Shown piece by piece: positions 6,524 through 44,100 of a stretch of DNA of 64,000 nucleotides. Numbering within the stretch: position 1 is the first letter of the stretch; each line of letters begins with the position of its first letter. Both the position numbers and the translations under genes were made by a program. Origin of the DNA: Erysipelotrichaceae bacterium. GTDB taxonomy: Bacteria; Bacillota_I; Bacilli_A; ML615J-28; CAG-313. Location of the stretch: contig SVBG01000001.1 of NCBI GenBank assembly GCA_015059015.1, positions 10,026 to 74,025 of the forward strand, written 5' to 3'. Under the pieces are notes generated by a model. It did not search any database, was not told the origin of the DNA, and saw only the letters and a list, made by a program, of their open reading frames with translations.

Positions 6524-6608
6524 TGGTGGAAGGGAGTGGATTCGAACCACCGAACTCGTAGAGAGCGGATTTACAGTCCGCCGCGTTTAGCCACTTCGCT
6601 ACCCTTCC
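6524..6608 (-). tRNA. tRNA-Tyr (anticodon GUA) with long variable arm, CCA encoded
   Basis: The reverse complement folds as GGAAGGG...CCCTTCC-A-CCA with anticodon loop CTGTAAA (GTA) and a long extra arm. Length is 85 nt. Confidence 0.85.
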
Positions 6609-6654
6609 ATCTTTAATATAATATTTAACAACGTTTCTATCACATTGCCCTAAT

Positions 6655-6683
6655 ATTATACTAAATTATGTGTATAGTGTCAA
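6655..6683 (-). promoter_or_regulatory. Consensus sigma-A promoter for the tRNA-Tyr/tRNA-Gln operon
   Basis: On the minus strand the sequence reads TTGACA, a 17-nt spacer, then TATAAT, about 45 nt upstream of tRNA-Tyr. Confidence 0.6.
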
Positions 6684-7377: not shown

Positions 7378-7438
7378 AATTTTCCTCCACTTATTAAATA
7401 ATATGATATAAGTATTTAATTTATTCAAAACTTTATTT

Positions 7439-7467
7439 TTGCAAGAATGTATAATTTGTGGTATAAT
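7439..7467 (+). promoter_or_regulatory. Sigma-A promoter of lysS
   Basis: TTGCAA, 17 nt, TATAAT; the RBS AGGAGG lies 6 nt before the ATG. Confidence 0.55.
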
Positions 7468-7507
7468 ACGTAAGAATAAATATTATTAATGCTAGGAGGC
7501 CTTTAAA

Positions 7508-12161: not shown

Positions 12162-12243
12162 TATTTAAATACGCATATCAATTGAAAATAAAAAATTAAT
12201 TTGTTAAAATAGGTTGAAAAATTTGGTTTTAAGGAGAATAGTA

Positions 12244-12360
12244 ATGAAAAAAGAATTTGAAACTCCAACAATAGAAATTATTTACTTTGACGATCAAATC
12301 AATTTAGGACCTACCGATGAATGGTATGATTCTAATGTTGACATGGGTGGTTGGATTTAA
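12244..12360 (+). CDS. Conserved 38-aa peptide MKKEFETPTIEIIYFDDQINLGPTDEWYDSNVDMGGWI. It is paralogue 1 of 3 and a candidate RiPP precursor or secreted/regulatory peptide.
   Basis: The RBS AAGGAGAATAG lies 5 nt upstream. Comparison with the other two copies shows about 10 synonymous versus 4 nonsynonymous codon changes. The stop overlaps the next ATG (TAATG). Confidence 0.6.
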   Translation: MKKEFETPTIEIIYFDDQINLGPTDEWYDSNVDMGGWI

Positions 12361-12527
12361 TGTCTAAACTATTAAAATATTTTTTAATAGGTTTTGTAGC
12401 AATTGCAGCAATTGTACTTGCATGTACAGTCTATAGTTGTTCGTTAGATGATGACACTGATAAAGATAAAGATGATGAAATTGGTGAATTCTACGACGAA
12501 AATGTAGATCCAGATGGTTGGATTTAA
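12360..12527 (+). CDS. 55-aa peptide with an N-terminal TM helix, an acidic linker and the C-terminal motif YDENVDPDGWI shared with the 38-aa peptides
   Basis: MSKLLKYFLIGFVAIAAIVLACTVYSCSLDDDTDKDKDDEIGEFYDENVDPDGWI. Its start is translationally coupled to the upstream peptide (TAATG overlap). A terminator follows. Confidence 0.5.
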   Translation: MSKLLKYFLIGFVAIAAIVLACTVYSCSLDDDTDKDKDDEIGEFYDENVDPDGWI

Positions 12528-12546
12528 AATAAATGACTAAAATAAA

Positions 12547-12585
12547 ATAGTAGTTTACTTTGATTAGTAAACTACTATTTTTCTT
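12547..12585 (+). terminator. Rho-independent terminator ending the small-peptide operon
   Basis: atagtagtttac-tttgatt-agtaaactactat followed by ttttt. Confidence 0.65.
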
Positions 12586-12837: not shown

Positions 12838-15800
12838 ATGAAGAAACTATTATTTAAATTATTATGGGTTTTTATATTAGTATTTTCTTTAACATTTGGT
12901 TGTCTAATAGCATTAGATAATAAACAATCAAATGTTAAAGCTACGGATGTAACTAATCCTAAAATTGAAATTCTAAAAAATAATGTATCTTATAGCGATA
13001 GTATTTATATTGCGTATGCTGTTGCGTGTGAAGGTTTTGAAATTAATAAAAATACTATTAACCTATTATTTTGGAACACAACACAAGAAAATTATCTTAA
13101 AGGCACAGAAGATTCTTTAGGTACAAGTAAAGGTAAAACAAACATTAATGGTAAGCAATGTTTAGTATTCTATTCAGAAGGTTTAGCAGCTAAACATATG
13201 ACAGATGATTTATATTCAAGAGCATATGTTGTGGTAGATGGTGTTGAATATTACTCCGAAGTAGTAAAATTTAGTGTTCTTGAATATGTTTATAAAATGA
13301 AAGAAGAAGCAACACTTAATCCACATCAACAAAGATTGTTTGATACATTACTACAATATGGTGGTGCAGCTCAAGATAATTTCGATTATAATACTAATAA
13401 GAAAGCTGATGCAACTTATTATAAAATTGCAGTAAATGAAGGGATTCTTCCTGATGGATTTAAACACGGAAGATACCAATTAAATGAAAAAGTAGTAATC
13501 AAACCATTATCTAAACCTGGTCAAAAATTTTCTCACTGGTTAGATCAAAATGGTATAATTGTTAGTTATGATAAAGAATTTGAAATCACAGTAACAGATA
13601 AAAATGAATATACTGCAATTTATAAAGATATAACTAATGTATCTAGTCAATTAAAGATGGAATATGAAGTAACATATGACGCAACAGTTGATGATTTAGA
13701 TTTACCAAATGCTGTAAATATAACAATCGGTGAAGAAACATATACACATGAAATTGTATGGGACTTAACAACATTTATGGAAAATAAAGTTGGTAAACAA
13801 AAACTATATGCAAGTTTTGTAGATGAAACTCTTTATACTGAATATAACCTTACTAAAGAAGATATTTATGTCGAAGTAAATGTATTACCATATACATATG
13901 AGTTAGATCAAGAAACTGGAAACTTTACACTTACAGGATACTATGGAACTGACGAATTAGTTGAAATCCCATCTATTTATAAAAATACAACTGTTACAAA
14001 GATTGCTACAAAAGCATTTAATGAAGTAATGACTTTAAAAGAAGTAGTAATCCCTACAACAATTGAAGAAATCGGTCTTGGTGCATTCTATTATTGTGAT
14101 AATATTGAAAAAATGACAATTCCTTTTACAGGTAGAAAATTAACTGACTATTTAACAAATAATTATTCACATTTTGGGTATATTTTTGGTGCTGTTTCAT
14201 ATGAAAATCAAAAAGATTTTGTTCCATTAAAATTAAAATCTATTACTTTAATAGAAGGTTCAACAATTATTGGAGTTGGCGCATTTAATGGATTAAGTCA
14301 AGTTGAAGAATATAATATTCCTGCTTCACTAGAATATATTTATGCATATGCATTTAAAGATTGTACGTCATTAACAAGTTTTTATATTAATGAAAATCTA
14401 AAAGCAATTGGACTTGATGCTTTTGTTGGATGCACTAATTTGAAAAGAGTAGATGTTGATAGTATGGAAGTTTTATTTTCTATAGATTGTGCTCAAGGAT
14501 GGTCGGGCGGATCTGAATTTTACACACCATTACAAAATGGAGCCGATTTATATATTAATGGGGTATTAATTACCGAAATTACTTTACCTTCATATGCTGT
14601 TAGAATAAAAGGTTTATTAGTTGGTTGTTCTAGTATTGAAAAAATTATTATACCTAATTATATTACTGATATAAGTTATGCGTTTAGCAATATGCAAAAT
14701 TTAAAAGAGGTAATATTTGAAGAAGATAGTACTTTAGATAGAATTGGTAGTTATGCATTCAGTGGTTGTATATCTTTATCTAATATTGAACTTCCTAATT
14801 CTATTATAACTTTAGGATGCGGAGCATTTGAATCTTGCGAAAGTATTTATACTATTGATATCCCAGAAGGAGTGACAAATATTGAAAGTTATGCTTTTAG
14901 TAATTGCATCAATTTAAATAGCATCACACTTCCAAGTAGCTTAAATGAAATAGGTTTAATTGCTTTTGAACGTTGTAGTAATTTAACAAGTATAGAAATT
15001 CCAAATAATGTTTCGGTAATAAAATATGGAACTTTTATGTACTGTTCAAATTTAATTTCTATTTTGCTACCATCTAATTTAACTACAATTGAAGGTAATG
15101 CTTTCTATGGTGCTGGTTTAACTAGCATAGAAATTCCATCACGTGTAAGAACTATAGATTCAAATGCTTTTTATGCTTGTGAATCATTATACACAATTTA
15201 CAATAACTCAGAACTTAATTTAGAAATCGGTAGCACTGATAATGGATACTTAGCATATTATGCTAAAGAAATTACTGATAAGGATGGAAACATTTATACT
15301 AATGATGGATATACATATGTTACAAACGATGATTTTGTATTTGAGTATTATAATGAAGAATATAAATTAATTTCGTATATTGGTGATAAGGAAACAGCTA
15401 CATTACCATTAGATGTAAATGGAAATCCTTACAAAATCTATAATTTTAAAGGGTTAAAAAATGTAATAATTCCTGATGGTATTACTGTAATAGATGATGA
15501 TGCATTTTATGAATGTCAAACTTTATCAAGCATAACTATTCCAAACAGTGTAATATCAATTGGAGCAAGTGCATTCGAAAGTTGCATAAATTTATTAAGT
15601 ATAACAATTCCTAGTAGTGTAACAAGTATTGGAGCAGATGCATTTAATGATTGTGAATGTGAAATAATTTGGGATAATCCAACGATTGAAAATATTGGAT
15701 ACTGTGCATTTAATGGTTATAAAGGTAAAAACATAGTAATTCCACAAACTGTAAAAACTATTGATAGCTATGCATTTTATAATTTATATAATGTAGTAAA

Positions 15801-16758
15801 TGTATATTATCTTGGAACTATTGAATCATGGAATAATATTGTATTTAACACTAATACGGCAAACCCAATGTGTTCGGCTGAACATTTCTTTATGAAAAAT
15901 ACACAAAATGAATGGTTTGAATTAATTGAAATTAAATTACCTAATACAATTACTTCCATTGGTGCTTATGCGTTCTCAGGATTTGAAAATTTAGATAGCA
16001 TAACAATACCAAGTAGTGTAACAAGTATTGGATCGGGCGCATTTAATGATTGTGTATGTAAAATAATTTGGGATAATCCTACAATCGAAACGATAGGATC
16101 TAGTGCGTTTAAGAGTTATAAAGGAACAAGTATAACAATTCCTTCAAGTGTAACAACAATTAATTCTTATGCATTTGAAAACGCTACATGTGAAATATTA
16201 TGGGATAATCCTACAATCGAAACGATAGGATCTAGTGCATTTGAATATTATAGAGGAACAAGTATAACAATTCCTTCAAGCGTAACAAGTATTGGATCAA
16301 GTGCATTTAGCAATGTAACATGTGAAATATTATGGGATAATCCAACAATAGAAACGATAGGATCAAGTGCATTTGCAAATTATAAAGGAAATAGTATAAC
16401 AATTCCTTCAAGCGTAACAAATATTGGATCAAGTGCATTTTATGGTTGCGAATGCGAAATAATTTGGGATAATCCAACAATAAAAACTTTAGGTTTTGGT
16501 TCATTTATGGGTTATATAGGTAAAAGTATTGTTATTCCAAGTAGTGTAACTACTATTTCATCTTATGCATTTTCTGATTGCGGAAATTTGCAAACTATAA
16601 TAATACCTATAAGTGTTACTAATATTGGAGGTAGTGTATTTAAAGGTTGTACAAATTTAACAATTTATTATGAAGGAACTGAAATTCCAACAAATTGGAA
16701 TTCTAACTGGAATCCTTCTAATTGTTCTGTGGTTTTAGGATATAAAGAAGAAAACTAA
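12838..16758 (+). CDS. Secreted multidomain BspA-type LRR protein, paralogue B. It has a signal peptide, a conserved N-terminal domain of about 250 aa, a Listeria-Bacteroides-type (Flg_new-like) repeat, a Big_4-like Ig domain, LRR_5-type repeats and four C-terminal CE(I/L)(I/L)WDNPTIE repeats.
   Basis: Signal peptide MKKLLFKLLWVFILVFSLTF. The N-terminal domain is homologous to those at 27845 and 57385 (e.g. LAAKHMTDDLYSRAYV, LEYVYKMKEEA, YGGAAQDNFDYNT, ATYYKIAV). The Flg_new-like segment is KPLSKPGQKFSHWLDQNG and the Big_4-like segment is EVTYDATVDDLDLPNAVNITIGEETYTHEIVWDLTTF. Confidence 0.85.
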   Translation: MKKLLFKLLWVFILVFSLTFGCLIALDNKQSNVKATDVTNPKIEILKNNVSYSDSIYIAYAVACEGFEINKNTINLLFWNTTQENYLKGTEDSLGTSKGKTNINGKQCLVFYSEGLAAKHMTDDLYSRAYVVVDGVEYYSEVVKFSVLEYVYKMKEEATLNPHQQRLFDTLLQYGGAAQDNFDYNTNKKADATYYKIAVNEGILPDGFKHGRYQLNEKVVIKPLSKPGQKFSHWLDQNGIIVSYDKEFEITVTDKNEYTAIYKDITNVSSQLKMEYEVTYDATVDDLDLPNAVNITIGEETYTHEIVWDLTTFMENKVGKQKLYASFVDETLYTEYNLTKEDIYVEVNVLPYTYELDQETGNFTLTGYYGTDELVEIPSIYKNTTVTKIATKAFNEVMTLKEVVIPTTIEEIGLGAFYYCDNIEKMTIPFTGRKLTDYLTNNYSHFGYIFGAVSYENQKDFVPLKLKSITLIEGSTIIGVGAFNGLSQVEEYNIPASLEYIYAYAFKDCTSLTSFYINENLKAIGLDAFVGCTNLKRVDVDSMEVLFSIDCAQGWSGGSEFYTPLQNGADLYINGVLITEITLPSYAVRIKGLLVGCSSIEKIIIPNYITDISYAFSNMQNLKEVIFEEDSTLDRIGSYAFSGCISLSNIELPNSIITLGCGAFESCESIYTIDIPEGVTNIESYAFSNCINLNSITLPSSLNEIGLIAFERCSNLTSIEIPNNVSVIKYGTFMYCSNLISILLPSNLTTIEGNAFYGAGLTSIEIPSRVRTIDSNAFYACESLYTIYNNSELNLEIGSTDNGYLAYYAKEITDKDGNIYTNDGYTYVTNDDFVFEYYNEEYKLISYIGDKETATLPLDVNGNPYKIYNFKGLKNVIIPDGITVIDDDAFYECQTLSSITIPNSVISIGASAFESCINLLSITIPSSVTSIGADAFNDCECEIIWDNPTIENIGYCAFNGYKGKNIVIPQTVKTIDSYAFYNLYNVVNVYYLGTIESWNNIVFNTNTANPMCSAEHFFMKNTQNEWFELIEIKLPNTITSIGAYAFSGFENLDSITIPSSVTSIGSGAFNDCVCKIIWDNPTIETIGSSAFKSYKGTSITIPSSVTTINSYAFENATCEILWDNPTIETIGSSAFEYYRGTSITIPSSVTSIGSSAFSNVTCEILWDNPTIETIGSSAFANYKGNSITIPSSVTNIGSSAFYGCECEIIWDNPTIKTLGFGSFMGYIGKSIVIPSSVTTISSYAFSDCGNLQTIIIPISVTNIGGSVFKGCTNLTIYYEGTEIPTNWNSNWNPSNCSVVLGYKEEN
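16051..16580 (+). repeat. Four near-identical in-frame tandem repeats of 132 bp (44 aa), with a fifth diverged copy at 15652-15780
   Basis: The unit is C(E/V)C(E/K)I(I/L)WDNPTIETIGSSAF-x-YKGxSITIPSSVT(S/N)IGSSAF. The copies are close to DNA-level identity, e.g. tgggataatcc(t/a)acaat(c/a)gaaacgataggatc(t/a)agtgc. Confidence 0.75.
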
Positions 16759-26365: not shown

Positions 26366-27484
26366 TATTTACAAGTTTATTAATTTATGTTATACTATAA
26401 GTGAAAAGTCCCATCAAAGGTGGGTAAGATGGATTTTTTTACACTTTATTTCTTTTTTGAAGGAGGCCTTTTTGTTTTGGTTCAAGTGCAAAAAACATCA
26501 ACCTCCTTCTAATATATTAAAACATAATGAAATTGCTTTTTCATTTAAAAAAATTTCATGCAACTATTTACAAATGATTAAATTTATGATATACTATAAG
26601 AGAAGCAGTTAGTTTCAATCGTATGAAACTCTTCTTCATTTTTGTGAGAAAAGTCCCGGGTTTTGATTTATGTTTTTGTTGGGACTTTTTACACTTTATT
26701 TTCTCTTGTTCTTTATTATAGAACACAAGAATTTAAGCAAAATGCTTACCAACCGAATTATTTCGGTAATAAGTCTGATTAAATCAGACATTCTTAGCCT
26801 CCTTATTTCTAGGAGGTTTTTTATTTTGGTTAAAATGCAAAAACATCACCTCCTTCTAACATATCCCCTTACAAAGTTATATTTAGAAGAAGAGTGCATA
26901 TCCCCTGGTTTATATAATGTTATTACGATATCATACAAACCGCTTCCATATACATAATTAGCAGAACTAGGTAAAATTGCTCTTTTTATTTTAAAAAAGT
27001 TTTCGACAACTATTAAAAAGTTTCATGCAACTATTTACAAATCATTAAATTTATGATATACTATAAGAGAAGCAGTTAGTTTCAATCGTATGAAACTCTT
27101 CTTCATTTTGTTGAAAAGAGTCCCAAATTATTTGTTATGTTTCGTTTGGGACTTTTTACACTTTATTTTCTCTTGTTCTTTATTATAGAACATAAGAATT
27201 TAAGCAAAATGCTTACCAACCGAATTATTTCGGTAATAAGTCTGATTAAATCAGACATTCTATGCCTCCTTATTTCTAGGAGGTTTTTTATTTTGGTTAA
27301 AATGCAAAAACATCACCTCCTCCTAACATATCCCCTTACAAAGTTATATTTAGAAGAAGAGTGCATATCCCCTGGTTTATATAATGTTATTACGATATCA
27401 TACAAACCGCTTCCATATACATAATTAGCAAAAGGTATTAAAATTGCTCTTTTTATTTTAAAAAAGTTTTCGACATTTAAATAC
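26366..27484. repeat. Tandem repeat of a 468-bp noncoding unit: two near-identical copies (about 26549-27016 and 27017-27484) plus a diverged internally deleted copy (26366-26548)
   Basis: Direct reading shows the full copies differ by only a few substitutions. Each carries TTTACA-17 nt-TGaTATACT (consensus-like extended -10 promoter), the hairpin agtttcaatcgtatgaaact, the hairpin aagtccc...gggactttt plus T-run, and a CCTCCT/AGGAGG/CCTCCT triple. Confidence 0.8.
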
Positions 27485-27725
27485 AAAAGAATTATTCATA
27501 AAAAATAAAAAAACTTGATAAGAAAACTCTTATCAAGAAAATAATGTGTTAATATATAATTTATGTTTAAAAAAGTCACAAAGGTAAACCTTTGTGATAC
27601 CTTTATTTATACTATTTATTTTAACAAATAACCTCTTTTTTTTCAATAAATATAAACTTTTAGTTATATTTAATATATATTTTAATATGTTATAAAAGTT
27701 TACCTTTATGGATAGGAGGAAAATT

Positions 27726-27842
27726 ATGAAAAAAGAATTTGAAACTCCCACAATAGAAATCATCAATTTTGATGAAAACATTAATTTAGGACCAAATGAC
27801 GAATGGTACGATTCAAATGTTGATATGGGTGGGTGGATTTAA
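27726..27842 (+). CDS. Conserved 38-aa peptide MKKEFETPTIEIINFDENINLGPNDEWYDSNVDMGGWI (paralogue 2 of 3), translationally coupled to the downstream LRR gene
   Basis: The RBS GGAGGAAAATT lies 4-5 nt upstream. The peptide is identical to the copy at 57266, with 2 synonymous DNA differences. The stop TAA lies 2 nt before the ATG of the LRR gene. Confidence 0.6.
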   Translation: MKKEFETPTIEIINFDENINLGPNDEWYDSNVDMGGWI

Positions 27843-27844
27843 TT

Positions 27845-30800
27845 ATGAAAAAGAATTTATTTAAATTATTATTTGTAATGTTATTCGTATTAACAGTTTC
27901 ATTTACATTTGTTTATAATAATAATACAAATGTTTTAGCTGATGAAACAGAAACTGAAGAAGTAGTAGAACCTTCACTTAATATATATAAAAAGAATATA
28001 TCATATGCAAGTGAAATCTATATTATGTATGCAGTTTCATATGAAGGAATAGATGTAACAACTACTCCTGTTAAAATGTTATTCTATAATTCTGTTCAAG
28101 ATGAATATACAACACAAACTGCATCATATGTTGCATCATCTCAAGGTAGTGTAAATATTGGTGGTGTAAGTTGTCAAATATTTGCATCTAATGGACTTGC
28201 AGCGAAACAAATGACAGATGATATCTACGCAAGAGCATATGTAGAAATAGATGGACAAACTATTTATTCAGAAGTAGTAAAATATAGTGTGTTAGAATAT
28301 TATTATGAAATTAAAGAAGCAGGTACTGTTTCTACAAATATCTTAAACTTACTTGAAGCAATGGTTAATTATGGTGCCGCAGCACAAATTAACTTTAACT
28401 ATAATACTGAAAAATTAGCTAACGCAACATATTATAAAGTAAGTGTAGAAAACGCAGTATTATCTGATGGCTTTACAAGTGGAAGATTTAAGGCTGAAGA
28501 ACAAGTAACACTTATTGCACCTGAAAAAGAAGGTTATGTATTTAAAAATTGGACTAATGCAAATGATGATGTAGTATCAACTGATGTAACTTATACATTA
28601 ACAGTAACAAAAGATGAAACGTTAACTGCTAATTATGAAGAAGAAGCAGGTGTAATACTAACTCTTTCAAAGGAAGCAGCGTATGACGCAACTCCTTCTA
28701 CACTTAATCTTCCATCAACTGTAACATTTGATTATAATAACGAAACAGTAACAGAAAATGTTACATGGGACACAACTTCATTTGTAGTAAATCAAATCGG
28801 TAAACAAAAACTATATGGAACATTATCAAATGACTCATATAAAGTAAATGAACTTAGCATTGAAATAGATGTGCTTCCATATACATTTAGTTTAAATGAA
28901 GAAACTAATGAATATTCTATTACTAAATATTATGGAACATCTGAAGAAGAAACTATTCCTGAAACATTTAATAATGTATCTATTGTAGAATTAAAGCAAT
29001 ATGCTTTTGAAAATGTTTTAACACTTAAGAATTTAATTATTCCCACTACAATTAATAAAATAGAACAATCTGCGATTTATGGATGTAATAGTCTTGAAAG
29101 TATTACTATACCTTTTATTGGAGATTGTTTAGATAGTTATAGAACTTTTGGATATATTTTTGGAGCGAGTTCCGCCTCAAATCATTCTACCTATATTCCA
29201 ACAAGTTTAAAAAATTTAACGATCCTAAATAGTGTAACAAACAGTGAATATAGTGCATTCAAAAATTGTAGTAGTTTAACAAATGTATATTATGAAGGAA
29301 CAATAGAAACATGGTGTAATATTGACTTTACTTATCATGAGTCTAACCCGATGTATTATGCAGAAAATTTTTATATGAAAAATGAGGAAGGTAATTGGTA
29401 TGAAGTAACTGAAATTTCAATTCCTGATACTATTACTGAAATTGGTGCTTATCAATTTGTTGGATTTGATAATTTAACAAGTATAACAATTCCAGAAGGA
29501 GTAACAAATATCGAGGCTTTTGCATTTAATAATTGTAATAGTTTGACGAATGTATATTATGAAGGAACAATAGAGTCTTGGTGCAATATGTCGTTTAATA
29601 ATTATTCCTCTAACCCGATGTATTATGCAAATTATTTCTATATGGAAAATGAAGAAGGTAATTGGGACGAAGTGACAGAAATAACAATACCTAACACAAT
29701 TACTAAAATAGGCAATAATCAATTTAGTGGATTCAAAAATGTAAAAAGCATAATAATTTCGGAAGGAATAATGAGTATTGAAAAATATGCGTTTGGTTAT
29801 TGTGATAATTTAACAAATATAGAACTTTCAACCACTATAACAAGTATAGGAGAAGGTGCGTTCTATAGATGTAGAAGTTTAGTAAGTCTAGAAATCCCAG
29901 AAGGAGTAAAAAATATAGAATCTTATACTTTTTCTGATTGCAATAGTTTAACAAGTATAACAATTCCGAATAGTGTAACAAGTATTGGTTCACATGTTTT
30001 TGAGAATTGTATTAGTTTAATAAGCATAACTATTCCAAATAGTGTAACAAGTATAGGAAGTGGTACATTCAGTGGATGTAGTGTTTTAGAAAATATAGAA
30101 CTTTCAAATACTATAACATTTTTTGGAACTAGTGTATTTTATAAATGTAGTAGTCTGACAAGTATAATAATACCAAATTGTGTGACAAGGATTAATTCAT
30201 CTGACTTCTCAGGATGCACAAGTTTAACAAGCATAACAATCCCAAGTAGTGTAACAAGTATCATTTCTTCTGCCTTTCATGGTTGTACAAGTTTAACAAA
30301 TGTATATTATGAAGGATCAATAGAAGACTGGTGCAATATCTCATTTAGTTCATATTTTTCTAATCCGATGTATTATGCAGAACATTTCTATATGAAAAAT
30401 GAAGAAGATAATTGGCATGAAGTAACAGAAATAATAATACCAAATACAATTACTGAAATAGGTTATTGTCAATTCTATGGATTTGAAAATATAACAAGCA
30501 TAACAATCCAAGAAAGTGTAACAAGTATTGTAGATTGTGCGTTTTCTTGGTGTAGTAGTTTAACAAATATAACACTTCCAAATAGTGTAACAAGTGTCGG
30601 ATTAGAGGCTTTTAGTGGATGTAGTAGTTTAACAAGTATAGAAATTCCAAATAGTGTAACAAGCGTTGGAAATAGTGTCTTTTCTTGGTGTAGTAGTTTA
30701 ACAAATATAACACTTCCAAATAGTGTAACAAGTATTGTAGAAGGCGCGTTCTTTAATTGTAGTAGTTTAACAAATATAACACTTCCAAATAGTGTAACAA

Positions 30801-31228
30801 GTATCGGATCATATGCATTTAATGGATGTAGCGGTTTAACAAGTATAACTATTCCAAATAGTGTAACAAGTATCGGCGAAGGTGCCTTCTATAATTGTAG
30901 TGGTTTATTGAGTATAGAAATACCTGAAGGAGTAACAAGTATTGAATCTTCTACTTTCTATGGTTGTAGAAGTTTAACGAGTATTACACTTCCAAATACT
31001 GTAACGACTATAGAATCTTCTACTTTCTATGGTTGTAGAAGTTTAACGAGTATTACACTTCCAAATACTGTAACGACTATAGAATCTAAAGCATTTTATA
31101 GTTGCGCCAATTTAACTTATGTATATTATGTAGGGACTGAAGAAGAATGGAATACAATTATAATAGAATCATCTAATGATTTCTTAATTAATGCTACTAT
31201 TCATTATGAATATGTAAAAAATGAATGA
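27845..31228 (+). CDS. Secreted multidomain BspA-type LRR protein, paralogue C: signal peptide, conserved N-terminal domain, Flg_new-like and Big_4-like modules, then an LRR_5 array of more than 25 repeats
   Basis: Signal peptide MKKNLFKLLFVMLFVLTVSFTFVYN. The LRR consensus is (G/N)CSSLTSITIPNSVTSIGxxAF. The preferred start is the ATG at 27845; the ORF track uses the GTG at 27833, which lies inside the peptide gene. Confidence 0.85.
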   Translation: MKKNLFKLLFVMLFVLTVSFTFVYNNNTNVLADETETEEVVEPSLNIYKKNISYASEIYIMYAVSYEGIDVTTTPVKMLFYNSVQDEYTTQTASYVASSQGSVNIGGVSCQIFASNGLAAKQMTDDIYARAYVEIDGQTIYSEVVKYSVLEYYYEIKEAGTVSTNILNLLEAMVNYGAAAQINFNYNTEKLANATYYKVSVENAVLSDGFTSGRFKAEEQVTLIAPEKEGYVFKNWTNANDDVVSTDVTYTLTVTKDETLTANYEEEAGVILTLSKEAAYDATPSTLNLPSTVTFDYNNETVTENVTWDTTSFVVNQIGKQKLYGTLSNDSYKVNELSIEIDVLPYTFSLNEETNEYSITKYYGTSEEETIPETFNNVSIVELKQYAFENVLTLKNLIIPTTINKIEQSAIYGCNSLESITIPFIGDCLDSYRTFGYIFGASSASNHSTYIPTSLKNLTILNSVTNSEYSAFKNCSSLTNVYYEGTIETWCNIDFTYHESNPMYYAENFYMKNEEGNWYEVTEISIPDTITEIGAYQFVGFDNLTSITIPEGVTNIEAFAFNNCNSLTNVYYEGTIESWCNMSFNNYSSNPMYYANYFYMENEEGNWDEVTEITIPNTITKIGNNQFSGFKNVKSIIISEGIMSIEKYAFGYCDNLTNIELSTTITSIGEGAFYRCRSLVSLEIPEGVKNIESYTFSDCNSLTSITIPNSVTSIGSHVFENCISLISITIPNSVTSIGSGTFSGCSVLENIELSNTITFFGTSVFYKCSSLTSIIIPNCVTRINSSDFSGCTSLTSITIPSSVTSIISSAFHGCTSLTNVYYEGSIEDWCNISFSSYFSNPMYYAEHFYMKNEEDNWHEVTEIIIPNTITEIGYCQFYGFENITSITIQESVTSIVDCAFSWCSSLTNITLPNSVTSVGLEAFSGCSSLTSIEIPNSVTSVGNSVFSWCSSLTNITLPNSVTSIVEGAFFNCSSLTNITLPNSVTSIGSYAFNGCSGLTSITIPNSVTSIGEGAFYNCSGLLSIEIPEGVTSIESSTFYGCRSLTSITLPNTVTTIESSTFYGCRSLTSITLPNTVTTIESKAFYSCANLTYVYYVGTEEEWNTIIIESSNDFLINATIHYEYVKNE

Positions 31229-32148: not shown

Positions 32149-35100
32149 ATGATGGATTTTAATCTGATATTGTTGCTAGTCGGGTTGGGATTACTAGTAC
32201 TAGTAGCAGTATTTGTACTTTTAGGTTGTTTCGCTGGTCTAAAGAAAGAACTTAAATGTACAGCCATCGGCTTTGTGGTGTTACTTTTAACATTACTGGT
32301 CTTTGGTAACTCTTCAACAATCCTTGATTTTAATGGATCATTGTTGAAGGATTTCATTCAGGGAATTCCAAGCTCTGCAGAAACTGTTTGGGACTGCATT
32401 TTAGCACTTGTTCAAACAAAAGTTCCTGGAGGGGCTGAGATCTTTGCTGAAGGAACAAAATCCTATGCCTTTTTATACAGTGTTGTGAGTGGCGTTGCAC
32501 GTGGTGCAATGTTAATCATTGGAACATTAGTAATGTTCATTCTATGTACTATCGGTCTTGGTATTTACCGTTTAGTTAGTAGAATTGTTGCTCACAATAA
32601 AGCTAAGAAGCGTGCTGAAGCTGGTGTTGAAGAACCTGCTCCTGAACAAGACAAAGTTATGAATGACAATGTCTTAGTAGCACAATCTGAAGCTGGTGAT
32701 GACGAAGGAGTTATGATAACGGCAAACAAAGAGCCTGTTAAACCTGGTTCTGGTAAGCACCGTGGATGGGCTGGGGCCCTTGCGGGGCTTCGTGCTGTAA
32801 TCGCAATTATCTTCTTATTCGCTCCTGTATCTGGCGTATGTTCGATTCTGGATGAGATTTCTCCTGAAACTGAAACACTTATTAATGAATCATTAAGCGG
32901 TAATAAACAAAACACTGCTGCATCAGAAACTATCTTAGATGTTGTTCTTGATTTTAAAGATGCATATTATGATAGTGCAGTAGGTAAGTTTATTGAAGGG
33001 TCTAAATTCTTCTTTGGTGAATCATTTAGTTTACAACTTTTCGATAGTGCATTTGTTATTGAAGGCGACAAAAATAACATTGTAGTACGTGAAGAAGCTA
33101 TTGTCTTTGTTGATGCTGTAAATGCATTAGAAGGCAATCTTGATTTGAAAAAGTTAGAATATAGCCAAATCGCTAATGCTTTAGATGAATTGAAAGATTC
33201 TAAATTACTTGTTGAGGCTATGCCTGTTGCTATTGAAACAGCATACTACTATCCAATTAATGCAAAAGGAAACATTAAATTAATGGGTAGTAATGAATCT
33301 TTAAAAGATTTATTATTTGCTGCAAAACAACAAGCTGCATTCTTAGAATTAAGACAAGTAGATTGGGATAAGAACATTGAGATTTTACTTGATACTGTTA
33401 AAGAAGCTTATAAACTTGGTGTCTTAGAAGATGATTTTAATTTCTTAACTATGGATCCAGAACAATTAAGCGCTACAGTTGAAGTACTTCTTAAATCTGA
33501 TGCTGTTAATAGTCTTTTAAATATCGCTGTTCAAACTGCATTAAAATTAGATGTTGTTAAAAATGCTGTTGGTGAATTACCTGCTGCTGACTTATCTGAT
33601 TTTAGTTGGAAAGAAGAATTTGAAACTATTATTGACATCTATGAAATATTCCAAGGTTTAGAAATTACTTCATTAAACAATCTTGATATTAAAGCATTAG
33701 TTTCTGAAATCGTAAATGATGAAGACAAACTTGAAATTGTTGCAGATATCGTTAAAGAAGTTACTGAATTACAACTAGTTAACAAAGTTGGTTATGACGC
33801 ATTGCTTGGATATGTTTCAAATATGAGTCATGTCGTTAATGCTGGTGATGATGTTGTTAAAGCAGTAAAAGATTTAAAAGATGTTAATTGGTCAAATGAT
33901 ATTAATATTTATGTTGAAGCAGCAATTGAAGCATTACCACTTATTGAAATTGGTGATGATTTAAAAATTAATGTTGATTATCTAAATTTAGATGTTGATA
34001 CAATTAGAAATGTACTTGATATCTTATTTACTACTGAATCATTTGAAAAAGTACTTCCTATTGGAGCAAGTGTTGGTTTAAATATCGCATTATCTAACGA
34101 AAAAGTTATTGGTTTCTTAGGCGATATTAAAGTAGAACTTGATACTTCTGCAATTAATTGGAAACAAGAAGTTACAACTTTAGTGGATGCATATGATGAA
34201 TTCCAAGATCTTGGAATTAAATCATTAGAAGAAGTGGATAAAGTATTACTTACTCAAATTCTAAATGATAGCAAAAAAGTTGAAATTATTGAAAATGTAA
34301 TTGAAAAAGTTACTGAATTACAATTACTTAAAGAAGTAGTATATGGTGTTGCAATTGAATATGTACTAAACATTAAAACTATCCAAGATCAAGGTACTGA
34401 TCTTGTAGAAACACTTACAGAATTAAAAGAGTATGATTGGTCAAAAGATATTAATGTATATGTTGATGCAGCAATCGCAGCATTACCACTAGTTGATATT
34501 GAATATGGATTCGAAATTAAAATTGATATTTTAAATTTAGATGCAGCACAACTTCAAGTTGTAGTTGATACATTATTTAATGCTGAATCATTTGAAAAAC
34601 TATTACCTGTTGTTGCAAACATTGGATTAGATAAAGCATTATCTAACGAAAAAGTTAAAGAAATTATTGGTGAAGAAAAAATTGTTTATGATACTTCTAA
34701 TGTTAACTGGAAACAAGACTTTACATCATTAGTTAACATTTATAGTACATTCCAAGTTCTTGATATCAATAGTCCAGAAGACTTTAATGATATGTTAGCT
34801 GTTGCAAAACGTATCTTAGATAGTGATGAAAAATGTGATGCAGTTGAATCGATTTTACTTCAACTTGTTGATATGACAATTTATGAAGGTGTTGTTATTC
34901 CATTTGCTGATGCTGCTGTAACTAATTTAATTAGTACAAGAGCTTCAAACTTTGAAGGTATCTTAGATATTACTAAACTTAATAAAGATGCATGGAAGAA
35001 TGATTTTACTGATTTAGTTGCTATTGCACGAAATGTTTATGAAATTTGCGGGCTTGAATTTAAATTAGAAAATATTGATTTCGAAGTTCTTTGTGGAGTT

Positions 35101-38100
35101 CTTGGTACAGAAACTGTTGAATTATTATTTAACTTAAATTTACTTGATGGTAATGAAACTAAAAATCAATTAGTTATTGCTGTATTAAAACAATTTAATG
35201 TATTTGATGAAGAACAATTAGCAAATGTTGATTTAAGTGAAGTTATCTGGGTTTCAAATGGTGAATATTCAGAAGTTGCTAATTTCCAAGAAATTTTAAC
35301 AATTTTAGGCAAAATGCTTGAAGTTAAGGGATTTGATTTAAATAACTTAAAATTTAATTATAATGACATTCTTGCTGATGAAAATGTATATGGATATGCA
35401 GTAGATTTATTAGATGTTGTTGTTGATTCTGAATTAATTCTTGCTTTGATGCCTAATATTCTTGATAAATATGTTGTTCCTCAAGTAGAAAAATGGGATG
35501 ATGAAGATGCTACATTAAATCAAATTATTACTGGTTTAGATTCTGAAGAATTAGTACTTGAAGTTCAAAAACTAGTTGATGTTGTGAAAGCAGTTGTTGA
35601 TCTTAATGTATTAAATTACGAAGATGAAGGTATCCAAGGAATTGATTTTGGTAATACAGATGCTCTTAGAACAATCGTTAATGGTATTTTTGATTCTAAA
35701 CTTCTAGAAGGTTATGAATCAAGAGTAGTTCGTATCTTACTTAAAGTTACTAACTTATTCCCTGATCTTGCAAAAGGTACATTTGATAATGTTGATTTTG
35801 ATAGTGAACAAGCAATTTTAATTGCTGCTATTGATGCATTAGAAGTTGTACTTAAAGATGAAAACTTCTTAACATTTGATGAAAATGGTAAATTCAAATT
35901 AGATAAAGAATTCTACTTAAAAGATGAAACTTTAGATGCATTCTTAAATACTTTAAAAGCTCTATTTGGTGAATACAAAGAAGGCGGTTCAGTATACGGT
36001 TCTGAAATTGTTGAAATTTTATTACCTGATTTATTTGAAAAATTTGTTGCTAAATTAATTCCTGAACAATTTGATGAATTAATGGCTATCTTAAATATTG
36101 ATGGTGCTAATCCAGGTCTTTTAGCTGATGATGTTCGTAAAGTTATTTATATTGCTGAATTATTAATCGATGAAAAAGTTCAATCATACTTACTTGGAAA
36201 TGATTATAATTTCGCTAATATTATTGATGCTCTTCAAGAAGTTGTTGTTACTGTATTTAACTTAAATATGGTAAATGGTAGTGAAGCTGAACTTATGGCA
36301 TGGGCTCTTAACTATGTACAATCAGTTGCTAAATTAAATGTTGGTACATTTACAGCTGAAGATTTCGCAAATGTTGATTGGGATAAAGAAGTTGTTGCTA
36401 TTAATACAGTACTTAATGATGTTGTTAAATTTACAAATATCAATAAGATTTCTACAGTTAATAAAGTTATTGAATTTATTAAGAATAAAGACTTCTTAAA
36501 AGATGATTTCTATCAAACTTATAACATAAATGTTATATTTGATACTATTGAAGATATATTTGATTTACAAACAATTGAATATACACTTCCTGTAGTATTA
36601 GAATATGCATTAAATCTTGCTAAAGAAAAGAACTTTGATGTTTCATTCTTAGGTGACAACATGACTGGTGAATTACTAGTTGAAGATGTTATGTCAATTG
36701 TTGAAGCATTAAAAGTTGCAGTTTATGATATTGAAATTTTAGAATATAAGAAAGCTAATTGGACAGGTGATCTTCCAGAAGTTGAATATGTTGTTGAAAT
36801 TTTAGATATTATTGTTAATTTAAATATTTTAGAAAATAAAGAAAAACAATTATTACGTTATTTAGTAGATAAATTTATTCCTACTAATCCTTATGTTAAA
36901 GTAAGTGATTTCGTATTCGATTTACATTATGATTTTGATGCTGATTATGAAATTATTAAAGAAGCTTTACCATTAATTTATGAATTAATTTACGCTAATA
37001 ACATGACTAAGATTGAACAAGTTAAAGCATTCTTTACTGAAAAATGGTATATGAATACTGATTTAGTTAAAGATTATAACATTAGTCTTGCATGTGATTT
37101 AGTAGAATTATTAAGTGATTTACAATTAGTAGAACAAGCATTATTTGGTCTTGCTAACAACCTTCCTGAATTAGATGCTCTTACTAAGATTGGTGATTTC
37201 TCAAGCTTAAAAACTCTTTCAAGAAGAGAACTTGTAAATGATCTTAAGACACTTGTAAGTATTGTTCGTCAAGGTTTAGATGCTAATTTACTAGATTATT
37301 ATGAATATAAAGATTTAGATTATATTGATTACGAAGCTCTTGCTGGTATTATTGAAACTGTTGGAACACTTAACACCGTTAAATATTGTGGTTCTGATAT
37401 TCTTCCAGAAGTGCTTAATTATCTTGTTTCTAAAAATGCTAAATTAAATATCGATTATACATTTACTAAAGCTGATTTTGCTGATGTAGATTGGGAAGAA
37501 GAAACAATTATTTTAGGTCAAGTATTAGTTGAAACTGGTGCATTATTAAATAATATTAATCTTGATTCATTATCAGATATCTTATTATTTATTAATCATA
37601 AAGACTATTTAGATACTACTATCTATACTGATGCTAATGCTAAACAAGTTGTTAATATTCTTGATATTGCAGTTGAAAGTGAAGTTATTAAAGCTGTAGG
37701 TATCGTTGGATTTGAATATGCATTAGATTTCGCAAAAGATAAAGGATTTGATATTACATTCTTAAAAGGCAAATTAACTAGTGATGAATTAATTAGTGAT
37801 TTAGATGTAATTGTTGAAATTGCATTGAATGCTATTGAATTTGGTGCTGTTGAATATGTTGTTACTAAGAATATTAATAATATCGATACTACTTATCTTG
37901 TAAATATTGTTGCATTATTAGAAGAACTTAACATTCTAAAATGTGCACAACCTGAATGGACTGAACTTGTAGTTTCTAAAGTTGCTCCATTATTAAAACT
38001 TGAATTAAAAGTAAATGCTGCTAAATATCGATTCATTAACTTTGCTGATGAAAATGTATTGCTTCAAGAAGCTATCATATTAATTGGTCAAATACTAGAA

Positions 38101-41100
38101 AATGAAAATATTCATAGTATTGATGAAATTAAACAATTTATTGGTAATAAAGATTACTTAGATATTAATGCTTATAAAGATGAAGTTATTGCTAATGTAC
38201 AAGACTTATTAGTTCTTGCAACTGAAAGTGATATTTTAGGTGTTCATTTAATTGAATTATTTGATTATGCTATTTCTCTTGCATCTTCTAAGACTAACTA
38301 TGATTTATCATTTATGGAAGATGTTGTTACAACTAGTGAACTTCAAGCTGATATTAGAAAGTTAGTTGAAATTAGTGATTATTTAGTTGAATTTGGTATC
38401 GTTGAACTAATTCTTCTTGGTGATGTTACAATTAATCTTGATCCAATTATTGAAGTAGTTCCTCTATTAGAAGAAGTTAATCTTCTTACTAAGACAAATG
38501 ATTATATTGCTGAAATCGTTTATAACATTATTCTTCCTAAGATTGGTTTAAAATCTGTTGATGTTGAACACTTTGAAGATATTGATTTCGCAAAAGAAAA
38601 TGCTGTATTAGTTAAAGTATTAGAAGAAGTTAAAGTATTATTAGAACTTGAAGACTTTACTACTGTATCTGACGTTGTATCATTTGTTAAGAATAAAGAA
38701 TATTTATACTCTGATAAATATGAACAAACATTTAATAGCGATGCTGTTGAATCAATGTTTAGACTAGTTCAATTAGCAGTTTCTAGTGAACTTGTTCAAT
38801 TAGAACTTGTTCCATTATTCAACTATGGTGTAACTAAATTAGCTGAAAAAGTTGATGTTGCATTCTTAGAAGACAGTGTTAAAACATCTGAACTTGTAAG
38901 TGATGTTGATGTATTAATTAAGATTGCTAGACTTGCTATTGAATTTGGTGCATTAGAATATGTATTTACTAAGGATATTGAAGTTGTTAACTTAGAACCT
39001 GTAATTGAAATTGTTGCGTTATTAGAAGAATTAAATATTGCTAAAAATAGTAATAGACAACTTTCAGCATTTGTATTTAACTTAATTTATGATAAACTTG
39101 GTATTAACAAAGATGCTAATGAATTAGCTAAAGCTAAACAAGGTCGTTCATCTAAAGTTAAACCTAGCGAATTTGTATATGTTAATTTTGCAAGTGAAAA
39201 CGTAATTCTTCAAGATGCTCTTGAAGTTGTTAGCTTATTACAAGCAGACTTTGGTCTAACTTCATTAAATGATATTATTGAATTTGTTAATAATAAAGAA
39301 TACACTAAGATTAAAGAATTTAGTGCTGCTACTTATACTCATGCATTAGATTTAATTAATGTTGCTACTATTTCTGCATTAGTTCAATATGCACTTCCTA
39401 CTTTAGCAGACTTTGGTTTAGATAAAGCTAGTGCAAAAGGATATGACTTCACATACCTTTCTGGTGTATTTACTGGTGCTGAACTTGCAAATGATATTAG
39501 AGTTCTTGCTAAAGAAGCTGTATTCTGGTTAAGAGATAATAACATTTTAAGTGTTCTTGATAATAAAGCTGTTGAAGCTTACTATTTTGATGAATTAGCT
39601 GAAACTATTAAAGCATTAAAAGATGTTAATATTCTAAATTATGAACAAGCTACATTAGTTACTAAACTTACTAATTTAATTTATGATAAAGCATTCAAGT
39701 ATGAAGGAACTATTGATGAAACTTACTTTAATGGTATTAATTGGGATGTTGAATTTGATAATGTTGCTGCATTATTAGTTGAACTTGGTGATATTGCTGA
39801 AACATTTGGTATTGAATATGATTTATTATCACTTGATGGATTAAAAGCATTTAAAGCTAATGCTAAGAATCTTGAAATCTACAATGATGAAGAATTATTA
39901 AATAACCTTGCAGATGTATTATCAGTACTAGGAAATTCAAGTGCATTATTATCTGAACTTGAATTTGCTGAAGAATACTTAATTTCTAAATTAGCTGCAA
40001 AAGATATTACATTAAATTCAATCTATACTTCTAAAGAAGGTCTTGCTGAAGATTTAACTGCTTTAATTGATGTTCTTAATGTTGTATATCCTTCTAATGT
40101 TCTTGGATTTGCTACTGGTAAAGAAGAACTTAACCAAGCATATGTTGTTGAACTTGTTGCTGCTGTTGAATCAGTTCTTAACATGAACTTATTAGCAAAC
40201 TCTAAAGCTGATATTCTTGATGTAGTATTTGACAAACTTGGTATTAATGTTGAAAAAGAAAAACTTGATGCTATTGTTTGGGATAATGCTGAAACAGAAG
40301 TTATTGGTGATTTATTACTTGCTGTTAATGATTTAATGGTTGAATTAGAAGTATTAACAATTGAAGATGTTAAAGGTATCAATGTAAAAGAATACTTAAC
40401 AGTTAATTATGAAACTAACGATCGTTTAGCTGCTATTAGTGCTGTTATTAAAGTTGTATTAGAAAGCAAATTAGTTGAAGCTTCATTATTTGGTATTTCT
40501 GAAAAATACTTAAATGGTGAAAAAGTAAGCGGATATGCTGATTTACATGTTATTTATACAGATGTTGCACAAGTTAAAGAAGACTTAACTAAACTTGCTG
40601 CTACAATTGATGCTGTTATTGAATTAGATTTATGTAGTTTCTTAGTTGAAGGTTCTAACATTCCATATGAAAAGAAAGCTGCTATTGAAACTATTATTAA
40701 TAATGTATTTACATTAAATTACTTAAATAACGAAGGTAGAGTTACTGAACTTATCGCTAAAGTATCTCCAATTGATACATCAAGCGTTGACTTTAGTAAT
40801 GTTAACTTAGTAAGTGATGCTCAATTATTAATTGAAGCATATGAAGAATTATTCCCAATCTTAACTTCAGATGAATTCTTCTTAAAGACTAAGAATGATA
40901 TGAAGTCTATTACTAAAGACGATTTAATGTTCTTAACTAATGATGAAAATATGCCTTCTGTTAAAGCTGCTTTAAATAATATTTTAGACACTACATTAGT
41001 AACTGAAACAAATGGTGCTATCTTCTTATTAGTAGTTCCACTAATTAAGAATGCTGCTCCTAAGTATTATGAAGCACTTGACCCTGAAAGATTAACAATT

Positions 41101-44100
41101 GATGAGTTAGGTGATGACGTTAATGCAATCTTTGATTTAGTTAAAGAAGTTATTAATGCTGATCTTAACGGAATCTTAAAAGGTATGATCTTTAATGATG
41201 ATGTTGAAGATTTATTTACTAATGCAATTAATACAATCGCTAATCTAAATCTTCTTAATGAAAGATTTGATGACCTTGCATTAGTTATTGCAGATGATCT
41301 AGATTCTAAACGTGTTGGTAATTACTACTTTGATAAATCATTATATAACTTAACAGACGTAATGTATAAAGAAGATTTACTTGCTGTAATCGATATTATT
41401 ACTGCTGTTTATGATTTCTTTGAAGTTGAAAATATCGCAACACTAGGTGATGCTAAAGAACACTTTGGTAATAAATCTAATATTACTGCTTTATTAAAGA
41501 ACACTACTCAAGTTAATAATCTTGAAAATATTATTAAATTAGTTACTGAACTTACATTTGCTAAATACAATATCTTACCTGTTTATAATGAAGCATTACA
41601 AAGTAAATTTGCTGAATTAATCGGTGCTGAACTTGCTGATGCAACAAGTGTATATGCTACAAGTGAAGAAATGATTAATGACATTGTAAGAGGTCTTGAT
41701 GTATTAAGAGATTTAATTGATCTTGGTGCATTTGATGCATTAGCTGGTGCTGAAATTAACTTTGATCAAGCTGATCTTGTTAAGAAACTTCTTGCTGATA
41801 TTGCTTTAGTTGAATATGTAAATGTTCAAAAACAAAATATTTTAGAATTTGTTGATAGTAAAGTTAGATTTGATCTATCACAATTAGATATTTCATCAAT
41901 GGATTTAGTTAATGATTTAACTGTATTTGGTGAAATGTATGAACAACTAATCCCAGTTCTATTATCTGAACATAATCCGTTTACAACTGTATCTGCTATT
42001 AAGGCACTTACAATTGCTAAATCTGATTTATATGCCCTTATTTATGATTATCAATCAATTTATCCATCAGTTGTAACATTATTAAGCGAAGTTTCTATTG
42101 CTCCACAATTAGTTAAATTTGCTGCTGATAAAGTGGAAAATAGATTAACTGGAATTGCTAAACAACTTGTTGTGACTCTTGATGTAGAAAATGCTAGTGA
42201 TGCAGATATTATTGAAGACCTTGTTGCTGGTGCTATAGTATTAGGCTATGTTGAAGATCTTGACTTATTAAGAAAAGTTCTTTACAAAGAAGATATTACA
42301 GTTACTGACAATGAAACAATTGCTGCTTTAGTTGCAAGTGTATTTGAATTAAATATTGTTGACAACAAGTTTGTTGAACTAGTTGAAGTTGTTCTTGAAG
42401 AAGTTCTTCATTTAGACTTAACTGGTCTTGACTTAAATGTTAATGATATTGATGAAGAACAAGAACTTATTGTTGAACTTGTTAACAATGGTATTATTGT
42501 TATGAATGATTTAGGTGCTCTAAACTTATCAGACGTTAAGCCATTAATTAAAGATATTAAGAATACTTTAGTTAATAACTATAAGAAATTAAATGGCAAT
42601 AGAATTCTTGATATTGTTGATGCATTAGTACAATCTGAATTATTCGAACAACTTGCAATTCCTACATATGAACAAAAAGTTTATCCTAAACTTTCTGGCA
42701 CATTAGCTGTTGCTGGAGATATTAGTGGTTACTCTCAAGAACAATTTGTTGAAGACTTAGCATTAATTGCTGTAATGACTAATGATATGAAAGTTTCTGG
42801 ACTTGCTGAGTTAATCTTTGATTCAGTTACTCCTGAAAGAACTTGTATCCCATATGTAGAAAGAATCATTAGAAATCTATGCATGTTAAATATTGTTGAA
42901 GTTAAGAAGGCTGATGTTCCTACTTGTCTTCAAGCTGTATTAGATAAATTAGGTTTAACTTCATTTATTAGAAAATATGATAAAGACTTTGATTTAGCTA
43001 AGTATGATTTATCTAATGTAAACTTTAAGTCAGATGCTGATATCTTTGCATCTATGGCTCAACAAGTATACGTTGTAATTGAATCATTAGTTGAAAGCAA
43101 ATATACTTCTAAATTCTTTGCAGATAGAGATGCTATGATAGCTCTTGTTGAAATGTATGAAATTTCACTTGATACTACATTTGTTAAGACATTTGCTGCT
43201 AAAGCATTAAATGCTGTTAGCAAAGTTGCTAATAAAGTTAATGCTACTGTTAATGAAGATGATGAAGCAGTTCTAATTAACATCGCTAACTTCCTATATG
43301 GTTTAGTTGACTTAGGTGTTGTTGGTGCTGATGCTATCGATTTCACTGATAAAGATACTGTTAATATGATGGTTCAATCTATTCATAATAGTATTACACT
43401 TCCTGAAAAAGCTAAGACTTTAATTGATAAAGTTGCTTCAAGAATGTATGCTTACGGTGTTGTTCCATTTGATTGGGATGCAGTTTCTATTAAGTCTGAA
43501 TTAAAACTTGTTAAAGAACTTATTTCACAAGTTACTTCATTCGAACATGAATTTAAGTTAGTTACACTTGTAAATCCTGATGCACAAGTTGATATCGATC
43601 AAATGATTTATACAATTAGTGATTCTTCATTTGTTGAACAATTATTCTTCCCATTCGTTGAAGGTACGTTTAAAGCATTAACATTAGGTTATACTGATGG
43701 TGAAATGGTTTATGGTGCTACACTTGATGATGTATTAGAATACTCACTTCCTAACTTCTGGAAAGTAGTTGATGCAGTATATGATATTACAGAATTTAAT
43801 ACTGCTAATATTAACGCAAACAACGTTTTAGCTAACCTAGATGCTGTTAGAGAAATTGTTGAAGTATTCGGAACTGATATTATGTTAAAAGATAATGTTG
43901 CTAAGATTATCGCTACAGGTATTGGTAAATATACTAGTCATGATTTATCAGATGCACAATTAGCTAAATTACTTGCAATTGACTTTGAAAATGAAGTTCA
44001 ATATTCAGATGCATTCTTTACTGCATTAGAAGATACATATAATAATTATCCATTCTCATTAGATAAATCTATGTTAAAAGATGCTAATGTTGTTAAAGGA

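Follow-up and report, generated by a model that had tools for sequence, protein, structure and literature searches.

What do three copies of a 38-amino-acid (aa) open reading frame (ORF), scattered over a 64,000-nucleotide stretch of Erysipelotrichaceae bacterium DNA (GCA_015059015.1, contig SVBG01000001.1, positions 10,026 to 74,025; hereafter the window), encode, and which enzymes, if any, act on their products? The original prediction assigned them, by the logic of a leader motif and not by adjacency, to an orphan gene cassette. Our analysis indicates that these ORFs are likely the precursor peptides of a ribosomally synthesised and post-translationally modified peptide (RiPP) pathway whose enzymes are encoded by the three-gene cassette at 3459–4861. 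The pathway resembles that of the linear polyphosphorylated peptides (LPPs) of Bacillales (PMC13381572, Nat Commun, May 2026), to which it adds a precursor family of its own, dispersed multi-copy precursor genes, a coupling to surface proteins and a lipoprotein twin as new features.

Copy A (27726–27842, plus strand) translates to MKKEFETPTIEIINFDENINLGPNDEWYDSNVDMGGWI. Copy B (57266–57382, plus strand) encodes the identical protein and copy C (12244–12360, plus strand) a variant with four amino acid differences, and translation confirmed all three copies. Each is preceded by a Shine-Dalgarno sequence (GGAGG or AAGGAG) 6–7 nt 5′ of the ATG; in copy A, GGAGG lies 6 nt upstream and the ATG of the next gene follows 2 nt past the stop codon. 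The claim that the copies show genuine coding conservation held for one comparison and not for the other. Copies A and B differ by two bases, both synonymous, as had been noted. However, both lie inside a duplication of about 1.1 kb (27560–28650 versus 57100–58190, 86–98% identical) that also takes in about 170 nt of non-coding upstream DNA with the promoter region, as well as the beginning of the gene that follows, and because this duplication is recent, their synonymous differences are uninformative on selection. The evidence comes instead from copy C. Copies A and C differ by 18 bases, which correspond to 11 synonymous codons (about 10 had been claimed) and four non-synonymous codons, and 15 of the 18 differences fall in the third codon position (binomial P = 1.9e-5). 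The flanks of copy C are only 28–38% identical to those of copies A and B, the random level at the given base composition. As these flanks cannot be aligned, the conservation between A/B and C ends exactly at the borders of the ORF. The 38-aa ORF is thus a real protein-coding gene.

The peptide belongs to a small family. Among 5.8 billion proteins, a profile search recovered 14 clusters at 90% identity, 13 of them of 38–39 aa and one of 58 aa (P0005, an upstream-extended call). Ten more peptides, nine of 37–46 aa and one of 29 aa (P0021, C-terminally truncated), came from an exhaustive search of 1.8 billion representatives. In total, the family comprises about 25 clusters, with E-values down to 7e-25, and a scan of a genome collection yielded a single distant relative (L007) from a goat-caecum Clostridia metagenome-assembled genome (MAG). 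The peptide is not covered by any Pfam or NCBIfam model, a PDB sequence search gave nothing meaningful, and Rfam and tRNA scans revealed no RNA gene in or around the peptide ORFs. The tryglysin precursor model of NCBIfam aligned with residues 1–11 at E = 0.12, which is not significant, and was discarded.

The N-terminus of the family is nearly invariant (M-K-K-E-F-E-T-P-T-I-E-I-I-x-F-(D/E)), the middle section varies in both sequence and length, and the C-terminus reads (W/F)-x-D-(S/E/D)-N-(V/L)-D-x-x-G-W-(I/V). All window copies contain F5-x-x-P8-x-I10, and the aromatic residue (Phe or Tyr), the proline and the hydrophobic residue of this motif are kept in nearly all members. If Gly22 is taken as position +1, F5, P8 and I10 fall at −17, −14 and −12 and Asp29 becomes core position 8, so that the position arithmetic of the original prediction is right. 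Ser30 is the sole serine of the window copies and stands where other members carry Glu or Asp.

Which enzymes could read such a peptide? The cassette is encoded on the minus strand, between MgtE and a leucine-rich repeat (LRR) gene, and comprises a PqqD-type protein, an S26-type peptidase-like protein and a P-loop protein. The first (4586–4861, minus strand, likely start MKIKEGF at 4852) is a PqqD-family RiPP recognition element (RRE; Pfam PF05402, 3.5e-18) that matches the solved RREs TbiB1, LppB (9x8z, 7.5e-5) and PbaB1 (9x90). The leader-contacting residues of the LppB crystal structure, N33, D70 and F74, are retained here as N37, D74 and F78. Its gene overlaps that of the 147-aa S26 peptidase-like protein (4168–4611, minus strand), which by its motifs and by blastp is of the soluble SipW/archaeal type. 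It carries the motifs GTSM…LHR…GDN (Ser-His-Asp) and no N-terminal membrane or hydrophobic segment; its matches to TIGR02228 (2.4e-6) and SipW (7.6e-5) are both below the curated cut-offs. The third gene (3459–4157, minus strand) encodes a ScmC-family (PF27840) P-loop protein. Its AlphaFold model (pLDDT 94.2) matches HprK/P and PEPCK in Foldseek (E about 1e-5, probability 1.0), and the modelled protein thus shares the HprK/PEPCK kinase fold. In addition, there is a weak match to TIGR04352 (2.5e-4), and no PDB sequence was found with the alignment profile of this protein.

Copy C, the nearest of the three, lies 7.4 kb from the cassette. To follow the association in other genomes, we gathered the surroundings of P-loop protein homologues in 80 metagenome loci (loci are numbered with the prefix L) and searched all six-frame ORFs with the peptide-family profile. 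Matches were obtained in three of the 80 loci (L041, L096 and L092), each on the same strand and just upstream of the P-loop gene. In L041, the match MEKQYEKPTIEIIVFEDEIETANEGSINVGEWWEE (E = 1.2e-8; peptide MEKQYEKPTIEIIVFED…) is encoded 140 nt upstream of the genes for the kinase-like, PqqD and S26 proteins. In L096, MKKNYNAPDFEVAEFEVEDIITLSVGTGPVEGGDDGWTDI is followed by kinase-like, PqqD, S26 and ABC exporter genes. In L092, the genes for a peptide (…MKKEYAAPEVEIIKFTPDRS…DGQWTDD…), a lipoprotein and a kinase-like protein are contiguous, the contig being truncated before a PqqD or S26 gene is reached. A regular expression for the leader motif, applied to the same 80 loci, recovered only these three; its other matches lay in wrong contexts.

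Furthermore, L101 and L102, which come from a closer relative with a syntenic cassette and a P-loop protein 74% identical to that of the window, encode a 41-aa member (MNKQYENPTIEIVEFD…DFWE, profile E = 1e-9) 3.4 kb from the cassette. In L001, a pair of peptide and LRR gene is the abutting convergent neighbour of the cassette, and the genes past the cassette (MgtE, YabQ, YabP and LysS) exactly match the order in window positions 1–9004. The window itself begins with the 3′ part of a fourth LRR gene (1–3384, plus strand), which is cut off by the left edge and transcribed convergently to the cassette. Among its counterparts in syntenic contigs, the one in L001 is preceded by a family peptide and the one in L100 carries the N-terminal domain (NTD) described below. 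A fourth peptide copy therefore probably lies just left of the window. Moreover, cassette and peptide are found together in the MAG GCA_045536115.1, spread over two contigs. Adjacency in several independent lineages thus supports a link between the two.

LPP clusters encode a precursor (LppA), an HprK-like kinase (LppK), an RRE (LppB), a peptidase (LppS), an MsbA exporter and a nucleoside triphosphate (NTP) transferase (PMC13381572). LppS is a soluble, archaeal-type enzyme resembling signal peptidase I (SpI), with the triad Ser29-His68-Asp93, and the combination of RRE, SipW-type peptidase and HprK-like kinase was shown experimentally to process [Y/W]xxPx[V/L] precursors (PMC13381572). These precursors have 35–200 aa and a leader of the form YxxPxVLxHQxIxFET, followed by xxS (PMC13381572). 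RRE binding needs Tyr-16 and Pro-13; cleavage depends on the RRE and needs Phe-3, Glu-2, Thr-1 and Leu-10; and Ser+3 becomes polyphosphorylated, Thr not being accepted by LppK (PMC13381572).

Like LPP clusters, the window contains a discrete PqqD-type RRE, a soluble SipW/archaeal-type Ser-His-Asp peptidase and a kinase-like protein of the HprK fold, together with short precursors that carry an N-terminal aromatic-xx-Pro-x-(Val/Ile) motif. Several published LPP cores also have D/G-x-W near the C-terminus, comparable to the GW tail of the window family; the precursors end in …NFWS, …EDGSWTPLP, …DQTWDPYNP or …KPWF, and their C-termini are termed highly variable (PMC13381572, Supplementary Data 1). 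In contrast to LPP, the aromatic residue of the window leader is Phe and not Tyr, no MsbA exporter or NTP transferase gene stands beside the cassette, and there are several dispersed precursor genes, which form operons with surface-protein genes and are accompanied by lipoprotein twins. By blastp, the window RRE is 40% identical to that of cluster 4 of the published sequence similarity network (SSN; 1e-25) versus 24–27% to those of LPP, and the window peptidase is 33% identical to the cluster 4 SpI (1e-16) versus 29–32% to LPP SpIs (4e-10 to 1e-9). As it is closer to SSN cluster 4, the window cassette is an uncharacterised relative of LPP and not LPP proper. SSN cluster 4 (Desulfosporosinus, Dehalobacter) was annotated as 'RRE others' with its precursor 'not determined' (PMC13381572). 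With the LPP family described only in 2026, the locus supplies a candidate precursor family for one of its sister clusters.

By analogy with LPP, the following route can be proposed. The leader would be the near-invariant KEF-ET-P-T-I-EII-F segment, whose aromatic-x-x-Pro-x-Ile motif would dock as a β-strand into the PqqD protein. The PqqD protein would thereby present the peptide to the SipW-type peptidase, a soluble Ser-His-Asp enzyme, for removal of the leader at a site between Phe15 and Gly22. The HprK-fold P-loop enzyme would then modify the acidic C-terminal part, most probably by phosphorylation of serine, and the product would be a short, very acidic peptide that ends in D-x-N-x-D-x-x-G-W-(I/V). 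Adjacency and the biochemistry of the sister system (PMC13381572) both support the earlier proposal that the peptides are read by the cassette PqqD protein and cut by a peptidase other than that of lasso peptides. The suggestion that hydroxyls of the core serve as kinase targets fared less well, as the window copies have no conserved hydroxyl where an LPP kinase would act.

Within the window, a single cassette may serve several dispersed precursor genes. Dispersed multi-copy precursors that rely on a single enzyme, ProcM, are known from the prochlorosins. Both systems have a near-identical leader, a more variable core and precursor genes scattered away from the single enzyme locus. The chemistry and the enzymes of the prochlorosins are different, however, and the window precursors are each tied to one class of surface-protein gene.

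Several observations weigh against an assignment of the peptides to the cassette. With a profile built from 12 published LPP leaders, the peptides score about 0 bits, and none of 32,396 ORF segments matches significantly. The cleavage and phosphorylation motif HQxIxFET|xxS (the bar marks the cleavage site) is absent from the peptides, and the spacing from Pro to Phe is three residues shorter than in LPP. Most members of the family have a serine 9–10 residues after Phe15, where the window copies have Asn (A and B) or Thr (C). The peptides share only [F/Y]xxPx[I/V] with the LPP leader, and they form a separate candidate precursor family that has just the RRE-binding core motif in common with LPP. 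On the genomic side, small-ORF searches by hand beside the cassettes of L017, L026, L076 and L083 and the partial cassette of L032 gave no precursor, and there is no cassette within 10 kb of the peptide in L011–L016. This lineage (L011–L016 and L107) stands alone beside a helicase-like gene, and the commonest neighbour of the peptide is a surface-protein gene and not the cassette. Neither an exporter nor an NTP-transferase gene was seen in the 64-kb window. Finally, the kinase-fold family, with at least 7,640 clusters, far exceeds the peptide family, and a PqqD or S26 partner was found at only about one in ten sampled kinase-fold loci, in a survey by single-sequence phmmer (E ≤ 1e-3) that can miss divergent homologues.

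The kinase-fold family also occurs in another setting. In nine loci of gut Clostridia type (L021–L023, L025, L029–L031, L035 and L053), a ScmC-family gene without a detected PqqD or S26 partner is directly followed at its 3′ side by a gene for a lipoprotein with a long Thr/Ser-rich region. The count of lipoboxes after kinase-family genes over-called spurious ORFs, and about nine loci are credible. These lipoproteins may represent a different class of substrate for the kinase family.

The leader motif is shared by another group of peptides, the paeninodin-type lasso peptides. According to this alternative, the ORFs would be lasso precursors with a macrolactam between Gly22 and Asp29, and the cyclase and the B2 protease would be encoded elsewhere in the genome. 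The peptide leader MKKEFETPTIEIINF does resemble, over its first 15 residues, the paeninodin-like leader of PbaA (MKKEWLKPELEVLDV), reconstructed from primers in PMC13381572. The lasso leader motif [Y/W]xxPx[L/V/I] is likewise read by a discrete PqqD-type B1 protein, although Phe is outside the published motif, and paeninodin clusters contain an HprK-like tailoring kinase. In addition, cleavage after Leu21 would place Gly at +1 and the nearly invariant Asp29 at +8 in the window copies, and about one third of SpI-type clusters adjoin lasso genes (PMC13381572). However, neither an Asn-synthetase-like cyclase nor a transglutaminase-like B2 cysteine protease was found among the window ORFs or in the related loci with called genes, and the other lasso-like details of the original prediction are not supported; the leader peptidase of the window would be an S26-family serine peptidase. 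The Thr at −2 is absent, as had been stated. The proposed Gly-Pro core start did not hold across the family, since Gly22-Pro23 is restricted to the window's own clade and elsewhere GD, ED, LD or SG is found (as in LGD, LED and LLD). Gly22 is replaced in other members by Glu, Leu, Lys, Asp, Ser or Gln, so that the family as a whole does not keep the residues of the putative ring, and the NCBIfam lasso precursor models do not match the peptide. We consider a lasso precursor very unlikely.

It is also highly improbable that the ORFs encode an unmodified secreted signal or bacteriocin-like peptide that is exported by a dedicated ABC transporter and has nothing to do with the cassette. In L006, the ORF after the peptide (2222–2353) does have an ABC exporter-like N-terminus, and an ABC exporter gene follows the cassette in L096 (11419–13089) and L076 (8779–10407). 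On the other hand, the peptide has neither a signal peptide nor a double-glycine leader, and the window offers no exporter for it. Moreover, the exporter of L096 and L076 is part of the cassette operon, a point in favour of the RiPP route.

What might the RiPP product be for? The genes downstream of the peptides give an indication. Copy A is immediately followed by a gene for a secreted BspA-type LRR protein (27845–31228, plus strand) and copy B by another (57385–62325, plus strand), while a third secreted LRR protein (12838–16758, plus strand) is encoded 3′ of the copy C unit in a separate transcription unit. All three contain the NTD, a stretch of about 160 residues (about residues 40–200) after the signal peptide that has no Pfam match. 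The NTD is present in every protein encoded directly after a KEFETP-type peptide, and besides the three window proteins its carriers are found in L001–L004, L008–L010, L100, L103 and L097. The L097 protein combines it with a laminin-G lectin domain in place of LRRs, which shows that the conserved partner is the NTD and not the LRR region. An AlphaFold2 model of the NTD built from three sequences reached a pLDDT of 59, too poor for a fold search. In low-GC gut-type Bacilli, the peptides are almost always coupled to NTD-bearing secreted proteins of LRR or lectin type.

This coupling suggests an explanation that dispenses with the cassette. The peptide could be a partner or regulator of the downstream surface protein, for instance as a coupled upstream ORF, a nascent-peptide regulator or a secretion helper, with a coincidental FxxPxI motif. 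In line with this, the stop codon of the peptide lies 2–30 nt before the start of the NTD protein in copies A and B and in L001, L002, L008, L010, L097 and L103, and the last peptide codons, GGT GGG TGG, could double as the ribosome-binding site of the next gene. However, the protein sequence is conserved over its full length and most of all at its N-terminus, which is distant from the stop codon and would already have left the ribosome tunnel. Copy C forms a separate unit with its own terminator, and other members stand alone (L011 and L107) or directly before the cassette without a surface protein (L041 and L096). The C-terminal motif also occurs on a Sec-type lipoprotein and so works as a protein motif. 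Together, these observations make a role independent of the cassette unlikely.

The lipoprotein is encoded beside copy C, the first gene of a two-ORF unit with a promoter-like site (TTGAAA-17-TAAAAT with extended TG, 12182–12210, plus strand, from a consensus scan only) and a terminator-like hairpin that closes it (16-bp stem and T run, 12544–12581, plus strand; 0.0 expected in shuffles). The second ORF (12360–12527, plus strand, 55 aa) starts at an ATG that overlaps the stop codon of copy C (TAATG). Its product combines a lipoprotein-type signal (…IVLAC) and an acidic linker with the C-terminal motif of the peptide, EFYDENVDPDGWI; it matches the peptide-family profile (E = 7e-5) and carries Glu at the position equivalent to Ser30. 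Peptide and lipoprotein are paired in four lineages (window, L098, L101 and L092), two of which have a near-identical tail motif. L098 shows the same pairing as the window (tail …STWSDENVDNGGWT), whereas the pairings in L101 and L092 are looser and have in common only a Trp-containing C-terminal tail (…STGWLPWV and …DDGLEWGP…). The gene order suggests an extracellular role for the acidic, Trp-containing tail, which would exist in a free and a tethered form, and joint action of the product with the lipoprotein twin and the co-transcribed NTD surface proteins.

A comparable genetic link between a SipW-type peptidase and extracellular proteins exists in Bacillus subtilis, where SipW is linked to the biofilm matrix proteins TasA and TapA. 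SipW is membrane-bound and cuts Sec signal peptides, whereas the window enzyme lacks a membrane segment and has an RRE as its partner. The free processed peptide and its membrane-tethered twin might be one extracellular ligand with a D-x-N-x-D-x-x-G-W tail that is recognised by the NTD of the LRR/lectin-type proteins, the RiPP pathway controlling the anchoring or release of these adhesin-like proteins. Phosphorylated Ser30 would then possibly mimic the Glu of the twin. This scenario is doubtful, though conceivable; if true, it would provide a function for LPP-type peptides. The ties to the surface proteins and the lipoprotein suggest a role of the peptides in surface-protein biology, an idea that can be tested in a minimal system of three enzymes and a 38-mer.

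The radical-SAM gene upstream of copy C (11466–12161) was considered as a maturase and rejected. It is a housekeeping gene, as it encodes NrdG (TIGR02495, 1e-63) and stands beside NrdD and a thioredoxin reductase. Between LysS and NrdG, all syntenic contigs keep the gene for a 644-aa membrane protein (9545–11479) with an N-terminal HAAS domain and a DUF4097 'toastrack' domain.

Just upstream of copy A, a 467-bp unit is duplicated in tandem (26548–27480, 94% identical over 300 nt). An oddly composed ORF of 95 aa (26670–26957 and 27137–27424), without a match in Pfam or Rfam, is present in each unit, as is a promoter-like box (TTTACA…TATACT). Further downstream, a single ORF of 4557 aa (32149–45822) presumably encodes a giant surface protein, and no family peptide precedes it. 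On the minus strand at 51723–53256, the gene for an AbiEii nucleotidyltransferase toxin (PF08843, 1.6e-33) overlaps an upstream DUF6088 gene; the two are probably a type IV toxin-antitoxin pair (AbiE-like). Directly upstream of copy B, the region 53853–56975 encodes a 1040-aa lipoprotein-like protein with a perforin-type MACPF domain, four InlB B-repeats and a GLUG motif.

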